From positions 1,536,001 through 1,600,000 of the forward strand of contig OZ244852.1 in the NCBI GenBank assembly GCA_965220965.1: a DNA stretch of 64,000 bases, given 5' to 3'. Shown piece after piece: positions 35,253 to 42,717 of the stretch. This DNA comes from Candidatus Marinacidobacterium sp. (GTDB taxonomy: Bacteria > Acidobacteriota > Vicinamibacteria > Marinacidobacterales > Marinacidobacteraceae). Within the stretch, counting starts at the first letter, position 1. Each line of letters begins with the position of its first letter. A program made the position numbers and the translations under genes. Below the pieces are notes generated by a model. The model saw only the letters and a program-made list of their open reading frames with translations. It did no database searches and was not told where the DNA came from.

Positions 35253-36018
35253 GGTAGCGGAGAGACATCACCTCTCCGGCGCGCTCCACCTGGAGTTCGA
35301 GTTCGCGGGCGGTCTGAAACCGCTGGGCCAGGATCGCGAGCGATTCCATGCCGCGGACCTCGCGGCCGTTCACCTCCATCAGGACGTCCCCGGGGGCGAG
35401 CCCGGTCTCGCCGAGCAGGGTGTCTGTGGGGAAGTCGATGAGCTCGAGGCCGACGACCTCGTTGCCGAGCACCCGGGGCGCCACCACCGCCCCGGTGAGG
35501 ATCCGGGGGAGTTCCGACGCGAGCCGGAGCCTCACCTCGTCGCGGGAGAAGCGCCTTTCGCCGCTCGCCCGCGCCCCGGCGGGGGGCAAGGGCGGCGAAG
35601 CGAGCTCGCCGGGTCCCCGCAAATCGGCTCCATCGATCCCGTCGGAGGCGGAGCGCTCCTCGGCGGGCGGCGCTTCCGGAGGGGGTGGCGGATCCGCCTC
35701 CGGAAGCACAGCCTCCGGGGGAGCGGGCGCGGGCCCCGGTTCGGGGAACGGCACGTGGAAGGGCGTTCCGGACGCCGGCCGCAGAACGACGCCGCTCCCG
35801 GAGACCTCGAGGAGGAGGAACCCGGATTCGCTCTCGCCCACGCGAAGAACCCGGGGTCGACGGTCCCCGAACCGAAGGAGCGCGGTCCCGCCCGGCTCCT
35901 GGACGACGACGCCGTAGAGCCGGATCTCCTGACGGTCGATGTTCTCGTCGGCCGGCTGGGCGCGGGCGCCGGACGCGGCGACCAGCAGGACGAGCGCGAG
36001 AGCGGCGAATCGGAACAC
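35242..36018 (-). CDS. GspC-like exported protein with C-terminal PDZ domain
   Basis: Signal peptide, L.G.V...ALL HR-like domain, Pro-rich linker, GL..GDV..EVNG...VERAG. Confidence 0.65.
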   Translation of the reverse strand: MFRFAALALVLLVAASGARAQPADENIDRQEIRLYGVVVQEPGGTALLRFGDRRPRVLRVGESESGFLLLEVSGSGVVLRPASGTPFHVPFPEPGPAPAPPEAVLPEADPPPPPEAPPAEERSASDGIDGADLRGPGELASPPLPPAGARASGERRFSRDEVRLRLASELPRILTGAVVAPRVLGNEVVGLELIDFPTDTLLGETGLAPGDVLMEVNGREVRGMESLAILAQRFQTARELELQVERAGEVMSLRYLIE

Positions 36019-36208
36019 GAGGCGGACTGTCTGACCGTTCCCGGAGTGTAGGCGGCGGCGCCCGCCGGAGACGCTTCGGGGCCCGGCGCTATACTGATTT
36101 CAAGCACCCGGCAGCTCGGCCGGCGCCAAAAACGCCGCCCGGAGAGCGCTTCCCGGGGTCCGCGGTCCGGCTCTTCGCCGATGCTTCGGAAATCGGGACG
36201 GCGCCGCC

Positions 36209-38656
36209 GTGGGATGTCCCGGAGTCTTCCGGGGCGGCGCCCCGGTGGCGGATTTCGGGCGACGGCGCCGCACCACCTGTCGAACGGCGGCCCGTCGCTC
36301 CGACGCGCTCGTCCTCCCCCGGGGGGCGGCCGCGTGGGAGGCGTCTCCCGCCTGCCGACCCCCGTCCGTCGCCTGCTGGAAGCCGCCTTTCGACGTCCTT
36401 CGGGACCCGGAGGCAGGCCGCGGACGGGAGCCGGTCCGGTGTGTTCCCCGCCGGGGCCGCATTTGCCCCGCGCGGACACCCGATCCCGAAGCCGCGGGAC
36501 GCGATCCCCGCCGACATTCTCCGGCGGCATCGCCTCCCGTCCGGCGCCCACCCACCGACCGACCCATCCCGAAAGACTCCCGAGAGCCCCCAACCCACCG
36601 CTCTTCGCGGCGCGGCCCGAAGCGCCCGCGCCGGCGACCCGATTCGCTGTTCAGCGGCCTGGGACGCGCCCTCTCGGCCCTCACCCGACACTGGCCGGGG
36701 CGGATTCTGCTCGCCGTCGGGGCGGTGTGGGTCCTGGCGCTGGTGGGGGGCCTGCCGCCCTCCTGGGCGCAGGACGCCGGGCTCGTCTTCTTCGTCACGC
36801 TGGGACTCACCGGCGTCTGGTTCGGGCGCGACCTGCTCCACTGGCTGCTCTACCCGGTCCGCCGGAAGCTGGTCATCTCGTATCTGTTCATCGGTCTGCT
36901 CCCGGTCCTGCTGCTGACCGCCTTCTTCCTCTCCTCCGCCTACGTGGTGCTCGGGGAGTTCGGGTTTTACGCCCTGGAGGCCAATCTGGGGGCGCGCGGG
37001 GCCGCCTTCTCGGCGGCCGGCCGCGACCTGCTGATCGAGCTTCCCCGCCGCGCGCCGCGAACGGACGCGGAAGCCGCGCTGGACGCCGCGGCCAGCGAGC
37101 TCGCGGCGCTCGCCCCCGGGGTCTCGGTCCACCTCCTCGAGCTGAGCGAGCGACGCATCGCCAGAAGCCTGGCGTCCCGCCCGGCGGAGGGCGGTCCGGC
37201 GCCCATCCCGGAGATCGGTCTCGCGCCGGACTGGGCGGAGGAGCCCTACGAGGGCGTCGTCCAGACGCGGACCGGAGCGTGGTTCGCCGCGGTGATCCCC
37301 GATCCGAGGACCGCGCGGATCGCCGCCGTCTTCGCCCCTCTGACGCCGGTGCTCACCCGGAGCGCCGCCGAGGAGGAACTCGGCGTGCGGCAGATCATGG
37401 GCCTGTTCGTCGGCGCCGACGAGGAAAACCCGCCCGCCTTCGAAACGCTGGGCGCGGGGGGCGACGGCGGCCGGTTCACGCTCCAGGCGTTCCAGGTGTT
37501 CCTGCTGGAGGCGCTCCCTTGGAACGCCGAGCTCGGAGGCGGACGCGTCCTGGTGCGATTCGCGTTCGCTCCCCTCGGCCTCATCCAGGGAACGACCAGC
37601 GGGGTGGCCGACTCGGTCGCGCTGAACGACGAGGACACCGGGGCCAGCCTGCTCGTCGCGCTCGCCGTCCTCGGCGTGGTGTTCCTGCTGATCGAGTTCG
37701 CCGCGCTCGTGGTGGGCGTCCGGCTGGCCCGTTCCATGACCCGTTCCGTCGAGTCGCTCAGCCGGGGCACGCGGCGGGTGCGCGAGGGGAACTTCGGTCA
37801 CGAGGTCCGGGTGGCGTCCCGGGACCAGCTTGGCGAGCTCGCCGGCTCGTTCAACATCATGACCGCGAAGATCAGCGACGACATGGATCGCCTCCGGCAG
37901 GCGTCGGTGCTGGAGCAGGAAATGGAGACGGCCCGTGAGTCGCAGGCCCGGCTTCTTCCTCCGGAGGGATCGGTCCGCGTTCCCGGATTCGCGGTCGCGG
38001 CGGTCTGCCGGCCGGCGACCCAGGTCGGGGGGGACTACTACGACCTCATCGCCCTCGGACCGGATCGGCTCGGCGTCGTGATCGCCGATGTGTCCGGCAC
38101 CGGCGCGCGCGCCGCATTCACGATGGCCGAGCTCAAGGGGATCATCCTCGCGCTCTCCCGGCTCCACGAGTCCCCCCGCCAGGTGCTCATCGAGGCGAAC
38201 CGGGCGCTGCACGGCGCGCTCGACTCGCGGACCTTCATCACGATCACCTATGCGGTGTTCGACTCCCGCTCCGGACGGGTCACGTTCGCCCGGGCGGGGC
38301 ACAGTCCGCTGATCCACCTCAGCCGCAACGGCGAGTGGCCCCGGTCGGAGGCGCTGACCCCGGCGGGCCTCGGCCTGGCGATGGACCCGGGGCCCGTCTT
38401 CGAGGCGGTGCTGGAGGAGCGTTCGGCGAAGCTGGACCCAGGCGCGACCTGGCTGCTGTTCACCGATGGCGTCTCGGAGGCCATGAACTCCGAATCCGAA
38501 ATGTTCGGGGAAGAGCGCCTCATGCGCCTCCTCGAGGACAACGCCGGCCGGTCGCCGGCCGACATGCAGCGCACGGTGGAGGAGGCTGTCCTCCGGTTCA
38601 CCGGCGGCGAAACCCACGCGGACGACCTGACCATGGTGTTCGTCCAGGTGCAGTGA
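36209..38656 (+). CDS. Membrane HAMP + SpoIIE/PP2C (RsbU-like) phosphatase
   Basis: TM helices, HAMP DQLGELAGSFN, VGGDYYD, IADVSG, RAGH, FTDG, DDLT. Start codon uncertain. Confidence 0.85.
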   Translation: MGCPGVFRGGAPVADFGRRRRTTCRTAARRSDALVLPRGAAAWEASPACRPPSVACWKPPFDVLRDPEAGRGREPVRCVPRRGRICPARTPDPEAAGRDPRRHSPAASPPVRRPPTDRPIPKDSREPPTHRSSRRGPKRPRRRPDSLFSGLGRALSALTRHWPGRILLAVGAVWVLALVGGLPPSWAQDAGLVFFVTLGLTGVWFGRDLLHWLLYPVRRKLVISYLFIGLLPVLLLTAFFLSSAYVVLGEFGFYALEANLGARGAAFSAAGRDLLIELPRRAPRTDAEAALDAAASELAALAPGVSVHLLELSERRIARSLASRPAEGGPAPIPEIGLAPDWAEEPYEGVVQTRTGAWFAAVIPDPRTARIAAVFAPLTPVLTRSAAEEELGVRQIMGLFVGADEENPPAFETLGAGGDGGRFTLQAFQVFLLEALPWNAELGGGRVLVRFAFAPLGLIQGTTSGVADSVALNDEDTGASLLVALAVLGVVFLLIEFAALVVGVRLARSMTRSVESLSRGTRRVREGNFGHEVRVASRDQLGELAGSFNIMTAKISDDMDRLRQASVLEQEMETARESQARLLPPEGSVRVPGFAVAAVCRPATQVGGDYYDLIALGPDRLGVVIADVSGTGARAAFTMAELKGIILALSRLHESPRQVLIEANRALHGALDSRTFITITYAVFDSRSGRVTFARAGHSPLIHLSRNGEWPRSEALTPAGLGLAMDPGPVFEAVLEERSAKLDPGATWLLFTDGVSEAMNSESEMFGEERLMRLLEDNAGRSPADMQRTVEEAVLRFTGGETHADDLTMVFVQVQ

Positions 38657-38658
38657 AA

Positions 38659-40356
38659 ATGGCAAGAGGACGCAGGCGACGCGGGTCCCGGAGGCCGGCC
38701 AGGACGGCCGCGCACCGACCCGCGATCGATTTCGCGCGGAGACTCGGATACCGGTTCCGCCGGCTAGAGGGGCTCGAAGAGGCGCTGACCCACGGCTCCT
38801 ACCGCAACGGCGGCGACGGCGGCGACTACGAACGACTGGAGTTCCTGGGCGACGCCGCCCTTGGAATGGTCGTCACCGAGGCGATGCACTTCCAGAAACC
38901 GACGTGGTCGGGGCAGCGGCGCCAGGAGACGAAGGGCGAGGTCGTCAGCAACCAGTCGCTCGCCGGCGCGGCGCGCGCGCTGGGGCTGGACAAGGGGATC
39001 CGCGTCGGCCCCGGCGTCTCGGCCGGAGTCGCGGTGCGATCCTCGGAACGCGTCCTCGCGAACGTGTTCGAGGCGGTGCTGGGAGCGGCCTACCTCGACG
39101 GCGGGCTGGCGGCGGCCCGCGGCATCGTGGGGTCGGCGTTCGACCGCAAGCTGCGCACGCTCCGGCTCACGCCTCCCCGGGCCGGAGGAGGGCCGCTCGG
39201 GGGCGCCGGGCGGCTCGTCCGCGCGGCGTGCGCGGTCGTCGTCCGGCTGGCCCGGCGGGTCCTGTTTCTCCGCATTCCCTCGGAGCGCGCGCTCCGGCGC
39301 ACGTTCGCTCGCCCGTCGCTGCTGAGGGCGGCGCTGGACACCGGCGCCGAACCCGACAGCGCCTCCCGTCGCCGCGGGCGGCGCGGCCGGCGCGGAGGTC
39401 GGGGCGGCCGCCGCGGGCCGGGACATCGCCGCGCGGGCGGCGCCGAGGGCGCCGGGCGGCAGGCGCTCCGGTTCCTCGGCCGGGACGTGATGCATCTGAT
39501 CACCGCCGAAGAGCTTCACCGCTCCTTCCCGGAGTGGGACGAAGGGCGGATGACGCTCGCGCGGATGCGGCTCCAGGAGCGGGAGTTCACCGGCCGGCTC
39601 GCCGAGCACTGGACGCTCGGTTCCGGGGACGCCGCGGCTGGCGACGCCGAGGCGCTGCTGGGCGCGCTCTACCTCGACGGCCAGCTCGGCGCCGCGCGGC
39701 GATCGCTCGCCGGGCCCTTCCGGGAGGCTTTCGACGACCTCGCGGAGCCCGGGCTGGAACTGCTCGACCCGAAGACGCTGCTCCAGAACCGGCTCGCCAA
39801 GGACGGCAAGGAGGCGCCCCGCTACGACCGCGGGCACTCATCCGGCAAGGGGGACGGCCAGGTGGTCGTGGCTGTGCGGCTCCAGGGGGGCGTGGTGGAG
39901 ACCGGGCGGGGCCGCGGCCTCAAGCAGGCGCAGAAGGACGCGGCCCAGCGCGCCTTCGACCGGATCTACGGCGACAAGGGCGAGGAACCGGCGCGCGAAG
40001 CGAAGGCCCACGGCGGCAGGGGCCCCTCCCGGCGCGACGGCGCCCGGAGCCAGCGAGGCTCGCAGTCCGGGCGGAAGGCGGCGCCCTCGCCGCCGGCGCG
40101 CGAGCAGCCTGAAGAGACAATCCGGACCGACCCGAAGGAAAACCCCAAGGGGGCGCTCCAGGAGATCCTGGTGAAGCGGCATGGCCGCCTCCCCGTCTAC
40201 CGGGTGATCTCGGAGAGCGGGCCGGAGCACGACAAGACCTACGTCGTCGAAGTGCTTTCCGGACGCCAGGCGCTGGGACGAGGCAGCGGCGGCAGCAAGC
40301 GAAAGGCGGAAGCGGAGGCCGCGGCGAAAGCGTTAGCCGCCGGAACCGTCGACTGA
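38659..40356 (+). CDS. rnc: Ribonuclease III with tandem RNase III domains and two dsRBDs
   Basis: ERLEFLGD at 38830 with FEAVLGAAYLDGG; second domain QALRFLGR at 39460 with EALLGALYLDG; dsRBDs DPKTLLQ... and NPKGALQE...SKRKAEAEAA. Confidence 0.85.
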   Translation: MARGRRRRGSRRPARTAAHRPAIDFARRLGYRFRRLEGLEEALTHGSYRNGGDGGDYERLEFLGDAALGMVVTEAMHFQKPTWSGQRRQETKGEVVSNQSLAGAARALGLDKGIRVGPGVSAGVAVRSSERVLANVFEAVLGAAYLDGGLAAARGIVGSAFDRKLRTLRLTPPRAGGGPLGGAGRLVRAACAVVVRLARRVLFLRIPSERALRRTFARPSLLRAALDTGAEPDSASRRRGRRGRRGGRGGRRGPGHRRAGGAEGAGRQALRFLGRDVMHLITAEELHRSFPEWDEGRMTLARMRLQEREFTGRLAEHWTLGSGDAAAGDAEALLGALYLDGQLGAARRSLAGPFREAFDDLAEPGLELLDPKTLLQNRLAKDGKEAPRYDRGHSSGKGDGQVVVAVRLQGGVVETGRGRGLKQAQKDAAQRAFDRIYGDKGEEPAREAKAHGGRGPSRRDGARSQRGSQSGRKAAPSPPAREQPEETIRTDPKENPKGALQEILVKRHGRLPVYRVISESGPEHDKTYVVEVLSGRQALGRGSGGSKRKAEAEAAAKALAAGTVD

Positions 40357-40486
40357 TAGGAGGGCCCTTCCCGCCCCTATACTCCGGGCGCGGGGCGCGG
40401 GGGACGGATGGGGCGCCGCCGGAAACCCCCCGGAGGCGCCGTCCGCCAGCGAGGGGAACCCTGACAGCCTGTCGATAGGAGAACCA

Positions 40487-41725
40487 GTGGCCGAGCGCCT
40501 GAATTTCGACCTGAACGAAGAGCACCGCGCGACCGAGTCGCTGGTGCGCGAATTCGCGGCCCGGGAAGTGGCCCCCCACATCCGGGACAACGACGCCTCG
40601 AAGACCTTCGACCGGAACATCCTCCGCGGCATGGCCGAGCTCGGGATCCTCGGGCTCTCGGTCCCGGAGCGCTGGGGCGGCGCCGGTCTGGACTACATCT
40701 CGCTCGGGATCGCCTGCGAGGAACTCGAGTACGTGGACACCTCGCTCCGCGTGATCATGTCGGTCCACGCCGGCCTCAACTCGCTGTCGATCCTCGCCTG
40801 GGGAAACGAGGAACAGAAGGAGCGCTTTCTGCGGCCGCAGGCGGAGGGGCGCGCCATCGCCACCTACGGCCTCACCGAGCCGGACGCCGGAAGCGACGCG
40901 GTGGGGATCCGGTCCGCCGCCCGCCGGGACGGAGACGACTACATCCTGTCCGGCGAAAAACACTGGATTTCCCTCGCCGAGATCGCCGACAACTTCCTGG
41001 TGATCGCCTGGACCGACCAGGAGAAGCGGGCGAAGCGGGACCATTCCGGGCTCTCGGCGTTCCTGGTGGAGCGCTCCCGGGAGGGCTTCGAGTCCGGGAA
41101 CATGACCCACAAGTGGGGGATCCGCGCCGGGAACACCGGCTGGTTCCGCATGAACGACGTCCGCGTCCCGGCGGCCAACCGGCTGGGCGAGGAGGGCGAG
41201 GGTTTCCGGATCGCCATGTTCGCGCTCGACCAGGGCCGCTACACGGTGGCGGCGGGGGCCACCGGGCTGATCCGGGCCTGCCGCGACCAGAGCGTGAAGT
41301 GGGCCCGCGAGCGCACGACCTTCGGCCAGGAGATCGGCCGCCACCAGTTGGTGAAGCAGATGATCGCCAACATGGAGCGGGACTACGAGGTCTCGCGGCT
41401 GCTCTGGCTCCGGTCCGGCGAGCTGAAGAACCGCGGGCGGCGGAACACCCGGGAGACCTCGCTGGCGAAGTGGGTCTCCACCGTCGCTTCGGAGCGGGCC
41501 GCGTCCGACGCGATCCAGATCCACGGCTCGTACGGCTACTCCGACGAGTACCCGGTGGGGCGGTTCTGGCGAAACTCCAAGGGAGCGGTGATCTACGAGG
41601 GGACGCGCGAGATCCACACCCTCATGCAGGCCGACTACGCGCTCGGCTATCGGCGCGACCGGCCGGTCCGCGCCGGGTTGCCTCCCTTCGCCGACGGATC
41701 GGGCGACTCGCCGGAGACAGCGTGA
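40487..41725 (+). CDS. Acyl-CoA dehydrogenase
   Basis: GLTEPDAGSDA, G.K.WI, R..FG..I..HQ, QIHG.YGY, IYEGT. Confidence 0.92.
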   Translation: MAERLNFDLNEEHRATESLVREFAAREVAPHIRDNDASKTFDRNILRGMAELGILGLSVPERWGGAGLDYISLGIACEELEYVDTSLRVIMSVHAGLNSLSILAWGNEEQKERFLRPQAEGRAIATYGLTEPDAGSDAVGIRSAARRDGDDYILSGEKHWISLAEIADNFLVIAWTDQEKRAKRDHSGLSAFLVERSREGFESGNMTHKWGIRAGNTGWFRMNDVRVPAANRLGEEGEGFRIAMFALDQGRYTVAAGATGLIRACRDQSVKWARERTTFGQEIGRHQLVKQMIANMERDYEVSRLLWLRSGELKNRGRRNTRETSLAKWVSTVASERAASDAIQIHGSYGYSDEYPVGRFWRNSKGAVIYEGTREIHTLMQADYALGYRRDRPVRAGLPPFADGSGDSPETA

Positions 41726-42717
41726 CGCCGTCCGCCGGAGCGGCGGCCCTCGAGAGCCTGACGCCGCACCTCGTCCGGACCGTCGAGGAGGCGGCGATCG
41801 CCTGCGCCCGCACGATCGGCCAGGGCGACCGGCGGCACTCGGACGCGGTTGCGGTCGCGGCGATGCGGGGGGTGCTGGACACCATCCCCGTCCGCGGGCG
41901 GGTGGTCATCGGGGAAGGCGAACGCGACAAGGCGCCGATGCTCTGGACCGGTGAGGAGTTCGGCGCGGGCGACGCCGGGACGTTCGCACTCGATATCGCG
42001 GTGGATCCGCTCGAGGGCACGAACCTCTGCGCCACCGGCGGCCCCGGAGCGATCGCGGTGCTGGCCGGCGCCCCGCGCGGCGGGCTGCTCACCGCCCCGG
42101 ACGTCTACATGGACAAGATCGCGGTCGGACCGGCCGCCCGCGACCTGCTGGGAGATGCCGTCCGGCTGGATCGCCCTCCGGAGGAGAACTTCCGGGCCAT
42201 CGCCGAAGCGGAGGGCATCGGGATCGAGGACCTGACGGTCGTGATCCTGGACCGGTCGCGGCACGAGGAGCTGATCGCCGGCGCCCGGCGGGCGGGAGCG
42301 CGGGTGCGCCTCATCGGGGACGGCGACCTCTCGGCGGCGGTGCTCGCCGCCACTCCCGGCTCCGGAATCCACGCCGCGGTGGGAGCGGGAGGCGCTCCCG
42401 AGGGGGTGATCGCGGCGGCCGCGCTCCGCTGCCTGGGGGGCGGCATGATCGGGCGCCTCGTGGTGCGCGACGAGACGGACCGGCGCCGGATCGAGGAGGT
42501 CGCGGCGGGCCCGGGAGCGTCGGCGGATCCGTTCCGGACGATGACGGCGGAAGAACTGGCGTCAGGCGACTCGCTCCGCTTCTGCGCCGCCGGGGTGACC
42601 GACGGGCCGCTGGCGTCCGGGGTGCGCTTCACGGCGGATGCGGTGGAGACCTCCACCCTCGTCCTCGGCAACGACCCGCCGGAGATCACCCGGACGGTGC
42701 GTCAGCGGCGCGCCTGA
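41722..42717 (+). CDS. glpX: Class II fructose-1,6-bisphosphatase
   Basis: VIGEGERDKAPML, AVDPLEGT, PDVYMDKI, LDR.RH, GGAPEGV, GVTDG. Confidence 0.92.
   Translation: MTPSAGAAALESLTPHLVRTVEEAAIACARTIGQGDRRHSDAVAVAAMRGVLDTIPVRGRVVIGEGERDKAPMLWTGEEFGAGDAGTFALDIAVDPLEGTNLCATGGPGAIAVLAGAPRGGLLTAPDVYMDKIAVGPAARDLLGDAVRLDRPPEENFRAIAEAEGIGIEDLTVVILDRSRHEELIAGARRAGARVRLIGDGDLSAAVLAATPGSGIHAAVGAGGAPEGVIAAAALRCLGGGMIGRLVVRDETDRRRIEEVAAGPGASADPFRTMTAEELASGDSLRFCAAGVTDGPLASGVRFTADAVETSTLVLGNDPPEITRTVRQRRA

Follow-up and report, generated by a model that had tools for sequence, protein, structure and literature searches.

We analysed a 64,000-nucleotide stretch of the genome of Candidatus Marinacidobacterium sp. 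(assembly GCA_965220965.1, contig OZ244852.1, positions 1,536,001 to 1,600,000 of the forward strand), referred to here as the window, in which one open reading frame (ORF) at 38659..40356 on the plus strand encodes P0001, a ribonuclease III (RNase III) of 565 amino acids (aa) with two RNase III domains (RIIID-a and RIIID-b) and two double-stranded RNA (dsRNA)-binding domains (dsRBD1 and dsRBD2) in a single chain. The frame runs from an ATG at 38659 to a TGA at 40354-40356 with zero internal stops; upstream of this ATG the same frame is open to 38335, yet homologues align from residues 1-6. The gene and its parts are as follows, with structural features taken from an AlphaFold2 (AF2) model and its predicted local distance difference test (pLDDT) values:

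38659..40356, plus strand: tandem RNase III gene (P0001, 565 aa), the only RNase III gene of the genome (ORF, TIGR02191, genome profile searches)
38719..39162, plus strand: RIIID-a, aa 21-168, with the catalytic set E61/D65/N135/E138 intact and the equivalent of E. coli E65 lost (G85) (Pfam, E. coli alignment, family alignment)
39163..39270, plus strand: inter-domain linker, aa 169-204, with a confident predicted helix at aa 179-201 (AF2 block pLDDT 82-92; mean column majority 0.62)
39271..39744, plus strand: RIIID-b, aa 205-362, fold and dimer helix retained, site apparently dead (R271, R275, G328), E295 and E331 kept (Pfam, Drosha alignment, AF2, family alignment)
39346..39444, plus strand: disordered Arg/Gly-rich insertion, aa 230-262, within RIIID-b, following its first helix and preceding its signature helix (AF2, family alignment)
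39760..39972, plus strand: dsRBD1, aa 368-438, a divergent copy without the GPxH-type loop of dsRBD2, attached to RIIID-b through a short linker of the canonical type (Pfam, identity to sister dsRBDs)
39973..40134, plus strand: disordered linker, aa 439-492 (AF2, family alignment)
40135..40344, plus strand: dsRBD2, aa 493-562, a conservative dsRBD (Pfam, identity to sister dsRBDs)

Domain architecture

The domain order that the original prediction had assigned to the 565 aa (RIIID-a, RIIID-b, dsRBD, linker, dsRBD) was borne out by the ORF and by Pfam, which matched the whole protein with two stretches of RNase III domain families and two of the dsRBD family, confirming the proposed count of two plus two domains. 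At E <= 1, Pfam detected nothing in P0001 beyond RIIID and dsRBD, and no PAZ, helicase, platform, CED, zinc finger (ZnF) or PUF domain. P0001 was also scanned as four separate pieces, of which aa 1-175 matched PF14622 (E 2.8e-26), aa 176-372 matched PF00636 (E 1.3e-8; 35.9 bits against a cut-off of 27, with the match confined to positions 1-53 of the 102 in the profile, its first half), and aa 370-455 and 456-565 both matched PF00035 (E 8.4e-6 and 3.3e-15, respectively). The NCBI RNase III equivalog TIGR02191 scored 230.9 bits (cut-off 166.25) summed over three stretches, namely RIIID-a alone, RIIID-b with dsRBD1 as a single contiguous canonical unit, and dsRBD2 alone. The motifs previously quoted for the two domains are all present, with ERLEFLGD, LANVFEA and KPTWSGQR in RIIID-a and QALRFLGR, FPEWDEGRMT and EALLGALYLDG in RIIID-b, and in the AF2 model RIIID-b extends over the full domain (~aa 205-362), including an N-terminal helix of its own and an internal disordered insertion.

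The two disordered segments vary in length across the family, from 18 to 73 aa for the Arg/Gly-rich insertion of RIIID-b and from 22 to 140 aa for the linker between dsRBD1 and dsRBD2. An Arg/Gly(/Ser)-rich insertion in RIIID-b occurs in every family member and resembles RGG/RS-type RNA-binding tails. Some members carry a third, C-terminal dsRBD (P0006, P0009 and P0024, of 657-674 aa, and those of genomes G005 and G010), giving the order RIIID-a, RIIID-b-dsRBD, dsRBD, dsRBD.

Distribution and authenticity of the tandem gene

Two checks that the original prediction had proposed, for homologues of the same architecture and for a separate canonical rnc, gave clear answers. A TIGR02191 profile search across the taxonomic family (28 genomes, 7 genera) recovered one RNase III locus per genome in 28/28, each a single-frame tandem matched in three pieces (four pieces in one genome), and neither a separate canonical rnc nor any other RIIID among them; nor did profile searches with TIGR02191, PF14622 and PF00636 detect another RIIID in the genome of the window itself (3.25 Mb in 2 contigs, 94% complete). 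Among 5.8 billion proteins searched, about 70 were full-length homologues, the 4 named ones being hypothetical proteins from Acidobacteria metagenome-assembled genomes. When 1.84 billion representatives were searched exhaustively with a profile, just 2 clusters at 50% identity matched end to end (P0003 and P0070), plus fragments, indicating that the tandem RNase III family is narrow.

An assembly chimera or a frameshift fusing two genes, the artefact against which the original prediction had warned, is excluded by the recurrence of the same single frame in 28/28 genomes from independent assemblies. The same frame is found in about 70 metagenomic proteins, and a 9100-nt contig of public run X1 spans 38300-40430 with 0 differences and 0 gaps, although this run is probably the source sample and hence not independent. 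Among other public runs, X4 (raw Hi-C reads) gave no aligned reads and X2 matched in short conserved pieces only, and no RNA run was listed for the stretch. Refuted by conservation and with nothing found in its favour, such a fusion has a negligible probability; the tandem RNase III gene is genuine and no artefact.

Active-site residues of the two RNase III domains

Residue equivalences were set by alignment to E. coli RNase III (7r97_A) and Drosha (6v5b_A):

E. coli E38: RIIID-a E58, RIIID-b Q268
E. coli E41: RIIID-a E61, RIIID-b R271
E. coli D45: RIIID-a D65, RIIID-b R275
E. coli E65: RIIID-a G85, RIIID-b E295
E. coli D114: RIIID-a N135, RIIID-b G328
E. coli E117: RIIID-a E138, RIIID-b E331

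Among the 47 aligned family members, E58, E61, D65, N135 and E138 of RIIID-a are invariant, as are R271, R275, D276, E295 and E331 of RIIID-b, in which D294 is kept in 45/47 and the dimer-helix residues F272, L273 and G274 in 47/47. The replacement of both signature acidic residues of RIIID-b by Arg, as claimed from the single sequence, therefore holds throughout (R271/R275, 47/47). In the E. coli mutational scan (PMC10037077), zero substitutions were tolerated at E41, D45 and E117. With Arg in the place of the first two of these, RIIID-b is by residue criteria unable to catalyse two-metal hydrolysis.

The Asn of RIIID-a at the D114 position was also correctly read in the original prediction, but its value as a sign of impairment did not stand. 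The canonical RNase IIIs of sister families have the active-site string EEDENE (5/5; loci L016-L020), that is, Asn at the D114 equivalent, and in the alignment to 6v5b_A so does Drosha RIIIDa. In the same mutational scan, D114 was the only tolerant active-site position (fitness of D114G 0.99; PMC10037077), and in the E. coli post-cleavage structure (PMC9291653) it is the sole side chain of the four catalytic ones that does not touch Mg2+. Since the sister enzymes and Drosha RIIIDa share the Asn and D114 is tolerant, Asn135 is no lesion; it is ancestral within the order. In 40 sampled canonical bacterial RNase IIIs, the D114 position was N in 5 and S, A or G in another 5, with the E41, D45 and E117 equivalents retained in 40/40. 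As an observation in its own right, this catalytic Asp appears less conserved among canonical RNase IIIs (N/S/A/G in 10/40) than textbooks imply.

These residues also bear on the reading that P0001 is a non-catalytic dsRNA-binding protein with both domains inactive, like plant chloroplast RNC1, whose tandem RIIIDs have lost catalytic residues according to parts of PMC3867540 and PMC8708148. The N for D at the D114 position and the loss of the E65 equivalent and its RNA-binding motif 3 (RBM3) in RIIID-a would suit it, and RNC1 offers a precedent (in the section of PMC3867540 concerned). However, E61, D65 and E138 are invariant (47/47), the N also occurs in canonical sister enzymes and in 5/40 canonical representatives, and the family genomes would be left with zero RNase III activity. 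RNC1 is without any active site, whereas RIIID-a keeps a full one. We regard a non-catalytic P0001 as very improbable, and RIIID-a as plausibly active in catalysis on the strength of its residues.

The losses in the two domains are coordinated: RIIID-a is without the E65/RBM3 motif, its E65-equivalent position being never Glu among the 47 members (Gly in 28, Ala in 8, Arg in 5, Ser in 4, Leu in 2), while RIIID-b retains the motif (for RBM3 and RBM4 of RNase III, see the relevant part of PMC1540722).

Predicted structure and pairing of RIIID-a with RIIID-b

The AF2 model of P0001 (mean pLDDT 80.7, predicted template modelling score [pTM] 0.67) is disordered only at aa 230-262 and 440-485. A second AF2 model was that of the family member P0070, 52% identical to P0001. 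Structural comparisons of the two gave the following Z scores, root-mean-square deviations (rmsd) and numbers of aligned residues:

P0001 against Drosha 5b16_A: Z 27.8, rmsd 7.8 A, 359 aligned
P0001 (model 18-368) against human Dicer 21cb_A: Z 25.4, rmsd 3.1 A, 285 aligned
P0001 against Giardia Dicer 2ffl: Z 21.5, rmsd 4.8 A, 294 aligned
P0001 against single bacterial RIIIDs: Z 17-20, rmsd 1.7-2.6 A, 143-150 aligned
P0070 against 8dga_A: Z 22.1, rmsd 3.5 A, 347 aligned
P0070 against 2ffl_A: Z 21.7, rmsd 3.8 A, 284 aligned

Foldseek likewise placed Drosha at the top for the P0001 model (E 9.3e-12, TM 0.45-0.49 by query), against a TM of 0.21-0.26 for canonical enzymes. In both AF2 models RIIID-b folds as an RIIID and pairs in cis with RIIID-a, as expected from the intramolecular pairing that the original prediction had put forward for structural modelling. 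When RIIID-a (15-172) and RIIID-b (176-366) were submitted to complex prediction as separate chains, the pair scored 0.86 against a best control of 0.00, a mark attained by 58/80 solved complexes and 2/110 mismatched pairs; the runs had at least 85% of contacts in common and a partner pLDDT of at least 68. This pass supports binding without demonstrating it, and may mirror the likeness of the pair to solved RNase III dimers.

The predicted interface consists of antiparallel signature helices, and a cis pseudo-dimer of RIIID-a and RIIID-b formed through these helices is what the models predict. Residues a:58-59 (E38 equivalent) and b:294-295 (D64/E65 equivalents) are both cross-chain contacts in it, as are a:81/85/88 and b:268-269. 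These predicted contacts fit the geometry that brings the E65 of one subunit up to the E38 of the other at the end of the valley, and they agree with the earlier suggestion that complementary losses (E65 lost in RIIID-a, kept in RIIID-b) fit a composite centre. Together, the coordinated losses and interface contacts suggest a valley that is complete at the RIIID-a end and degenerate, from both domains, at the RIIID-b end.

Two other ways of assembling the chains would use the same parts. In the first, chains homodimerise through RIIID-a:RIIID-a' and make ordinary double cuts, with RIIID-b and dsRBD1 serving as an accessory for RNA binding or regulation. In its favour, no catalytic residue is missing from RIIID-a, whose signature helix is canonical, the bacterial RNase IIIs of solved structure are without exception homodimers (PMC8708148), and a sole-copy enzyme must do the normal work of rnc. 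Nevertheless, it is RIIID-b and no second RIIID-a that lies on the dimer face in both AF2 models, and the complex of the two domains scored far above its controls. RIIID-b has also held F272, L273 and G274 in 47/47 despite its lost catalysis, and the loss of E65/RBM3 from RIIID-a with its retention in RIIID-b makes sense only if RIIID-b supplies RIIID-a. A tethered partner would, moreover, enjoy a large advantage in effective concentration, and we consider such homodimers unlikely. In the second, RIIID-a pairs with the RIIID-b of another chain in a domain-swapped dimer or higher oligomer with two valleys and one active site each. The interface is predicted equally well between separate chains, and the 36-aa, helix-bearing linker might favour swapping, but in the full-length AF2 models the two domains of one chain meet each other, and the geometry of the linker is confident. 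A swap is to our minds quite improbable, and in functional terms it would still leave one active site per valley.

A proposed single-chain RNase III with one working site

We propose that, in the ancestor of this acidobacterial family, rnc gained a second RIIID and a second dsRBD, the diverged copies now lying between RIIID-a and dsRBD2, and that the product would be a counterpart of the RNase III dimer whose two RIIIDs and two dsRBDs all belong to a single chain. RIIID-a and RIIID-b would pair in cis via their signature helices to form one dsRNA-binding valley in the style of Drosha and Dicer, with the sole working Mg2+ site at the RIIID-a end (E61, D65, N135, E138), where a:E58 and b:E295 would flank it. 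The invariant Arg271 and Arg275 at the opposite, RIIID-b end would grip the second strand by its backbone and leave it uncut. One strand would thus be cleaved per binding event, giving a nick or an orientation-dependent single cut, and a double-strand break would require a second, flipped binding event. With dsRBD1 attached to RIIID-b by the usual short linker, dsRBD2 on its flexible linker of 22-140 aa could stand in for the dsRBD of RIIID-a itself.

On balance we favour this reading of P0001 as an RNase III heterodimer whose halves are joined covalently and of whose two sites one works, a dsRNA nickase or asymmetric processor descended in situ from rnc. From one intact and one dead nuclease domain, we infer that probably one RNA strand is cut at a time, and that the arginines hold the other strand. 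Precedents exist in trans: engineered E. coli RNase III heterodimers with a single active subunit nick dsRNA, as stated in part of PMC3867540 (citing its refs 39 and 40), and the editosome endonucleases are thought to act likewise according to the same source.

Several points weigh against such an enzyme. That the enzyme nicks, is monomeric and has a composite centre is a matter of prediction and inference, and the methods that predicted the cis pairing had structures of Dicer, Drosha and RNase III dimers in their training data. The dimer helix of RIIID-a still looks canonical and has kept the ball Phe (F62, 47/47), which is compatible with a:a' homodimers. E331, the E117 equivalent, is invariant in the apparently dead RIIID-b, where it may form a salt bridge to the arginines. 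Finally, the sole RNase III of a cell must mature rRNA precursors, at which model bacteria cut both strands, so that a strict nickase would need flipped rebinding or the help of other RNases for rRNA maturation.

Descent from rnc and origin of the second domain pair

The tandem gene is the orthologue and in-situ descendant of canonical rnc, because it occupies the position of the canonical rnc of sister families. The order of a PDZ gene, a HAMP-SpoIIE gene and rnc is kept in 5/5 loci of two sister families, in which rnc is canonical (~240 aa), and a two-piece match of the canonical type was found in 15/16 sister-family genomes (14/15 without the unpublished G033), the sole miss being a 73%-complete genome.

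Sister canonical enzymes match RIIID-a and dsRBD2 best. Mean identity to sister-family dsRBDs is 47% for dsRBD2 and 30% for dsRBD1, and to sister-family canonical RIIIDs 34% for RIIID-a and 29% for RIIID-b, contrasts which suggest that the outer pair (RIIID-a, dsRBD2) is the conservative copy and that the inner pair (RIIID-b, dsRBD1) has diverged. In a 99-row RIIID tree, which took in two eukaryotic tandem proteins (P0137 and P0241) and no Drosha or Dicer sequences, the deep nodes were open and RIIID-b, whose stem was long (1.47), was placed next to a single canonical row (support 83%). An approximately unbiased (AU) test did not reject a clade of RIIID-a plus RIIID-b (p-AU 0.859), whose log-likelihood (lnL) was +36.4 over the free quick search. 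An internal duplication as the source of RIIID-b is allowed by the tree and the AU test, though unproven, and the third dsRBD of some members suggests that domain duplication is still ongoing in the family.

The alternative, in which a eukaryote such as a host donated a Drosha-like core and no internal duplication took place, draws on the fact that Drosha and Dicer are the best structural matches and that for RIIID-b alone the best PDB sequence match is Drosha (E 2.2e-8, the sum of three weak stretches). E. coli RNase III matches RIIID-b too (E 7.1e-5), however, and the gene sits at the orthologous rnc position, the RIIID-a plus RIIID-b clade is unrejected, and the eukaryotic tandem proteins group elsewhere in the tree. 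We accord such an acquisition only a very slim chance; the tandem most likely arose independently of Drosha and Dicer and has a bacterial origin.

Comparison with known RNase III systems

P0001 resembles class 1 bacterial RNase III in passing TIGR02191, in sitting at the rnc locus as the only RNase III of the cell, and in the ordinary sequences of RIIID-a, which bears the E41/D45/E117 set, and dsRBD2. It differs in having two RIIIDs and two dsRBDs in 565 aa, as against one of each in ~220-250 aa, in its apparently dead second RIIID, and in the predicted cis pairing instead of a symmetric homodimer. With Drosha and Dicer it shares the order RIIID, RIIID, dsRBD and a predicted cis pseudo-dimer that superposes in both P0001 and P0070 (Z 21-28, 284-375 aligned residues), and with Drosha RIIIDa the N at the D114 position of RIIID-a. 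Both RIIIDs of those enzymes cut, whereas RIIID-b of P0001, with Arg at the E41/D45 equivalents (47/47), by these residues cannot; P0001 is also without detected PAZ, helicase, platform and CED, and has an extra C-terminal dsRBD.

A parallel in function may be seen in the trypanosome editosome proteins KREN1-3 with KREPB4/5, in which a functional and a degenerate RIIID are proposed, in the part of PMC3867540 that treats them, to form a single-site valley cutting one strand. Those are trans pairs of separate polypeptides with ZnF and PUF modules in kinetoplastids, whereas P0001 is covalent, has two dsRBDs and is housekeeping; the engineered E. coli heterodimers, too, are trans pairs of separate polypeptides. 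In its proposed working P0001 is like an active/degenerate heterodimer, in its look like a Drosha/Dicer core, and by its descent it is a bacterial rnc. Our full-text literature searches found no description of a natural bacterial tandem RNase III, only eukaryotic tandems and engineered E. coli variants, and a 2021 review gives, in the portion concerned, one RIIID per chain for bacterial RNase III and two per chain for Drosha and Dicer only (PMC8708148).

Among metagenomic proteins, P0101, P0107 and P0132 (437-439 aa) are similar in having RIIID-RIIID-dsRBD with one intact domain and a second, dead one, and they differ from P0001 in having one dsRBD only and belonging to separate lineages. P0132 reads R1 EEDRDE and R2 GAAEDK, with R1, like RIIID-a of P0001, also without the E65 equivalent. 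P0108, P0105 and P0150 are further metagenomic tandem RNase IIIs of the active-plus-dead kind, likewise with a single dsRBD and of separate lineages. In all six of these proteins the two domains of each cluster together in the tree, pointing to independent duplications in the metagenomic lineages, and three other metagenomic tandems (P0100, P0102 and P0153) have two intact RIIIDs. A first scan of genome contigs detected no relative of the P0132-type tandem in named genomes. A second genome scan, with generic signature patterns, returned 80 loci, of which 78 were apparently ordinary rnc (matches of about 580-780 nt) and two, L025 and L077, had longer matches of 942 and 975 nt, a full tandem match being roughly 1300 nt.

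We consider it an even call whether the whole family has swapped the homodimeric RNase III for a single-chain, Drosha-like pseudo-heterodimer with an arginine-lined, non-cutting strand holder, whether all its RNase III work proceeds by strand-selective single cuts, and whether it represents a recurrent class. If so, rRNA maturation and mRNA and antisense control in this family would run via strand-selective single cuts, and this bacterial locus would bear witness to the duplication-and-fusion route by which the tandem RIIIDs of Drosha and Dicer also arose. The active-plus-dead tandems of other metagenomic lineages suggest that such enzymes may form a recurrent, overlooked prokaryotic RNase III class. 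The family could serve as a tractable model of an intramolecular RIIID pseudo-dimer evolving out of a homodimer, and may show the fate of the second site after symmetry breaks, with Arg in the place of metal ligands offering a clear, testable case of a nuclease site turned binding site. In the enzyme itself, nature would have supplied a dsRNA nickase or orientation-specific processor, with possible use as a reagent, that handles rRNA and antisense RNA without concerted double cuts. It is of interest to RNase III specialists, on a basis of prediction.

Neighbouring genes and other features of the locus

The genes next to the tandem RNase III gene are:

36209..38656, plus strand: HAMP-SpoIIE (PP2C-type phosphatase) gene, upstream neighbour, its stop 2 nt before the RNase III start
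40487-41725, plus strand: acyl-CoA dehydrogenase gene, downstream
within 41113-42717, plus strand: glpX-type fructose-1,6-bisphosphatase gene, downstream

A scan of 35900-40700 for promoters and terminators found no promoter-like site; its 6 terminator-like matches were weak, and their placement was not informative. An antisense ORF at 39920-41617 on the minus strand (565 aa) and other long ORFs on the opposite strand had no Pfam match, and are most likely by-products of high G+C. Both downstream genes (40487-42717) are syntenic in the family; in sister families ~3.4 kb of other sequence lies between them and rnc. The HAMP-SpoIIE gene stands directly upstream of rnc in 8/8 loci examined from three families (L016-L023). 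HAMP-SpoIIE and rnc may form a conserved operon, hinting at phospho-regulation of RNase III, and E. coli RNase III is known to be regulated by Ser phosphorylation (PMC4858673).

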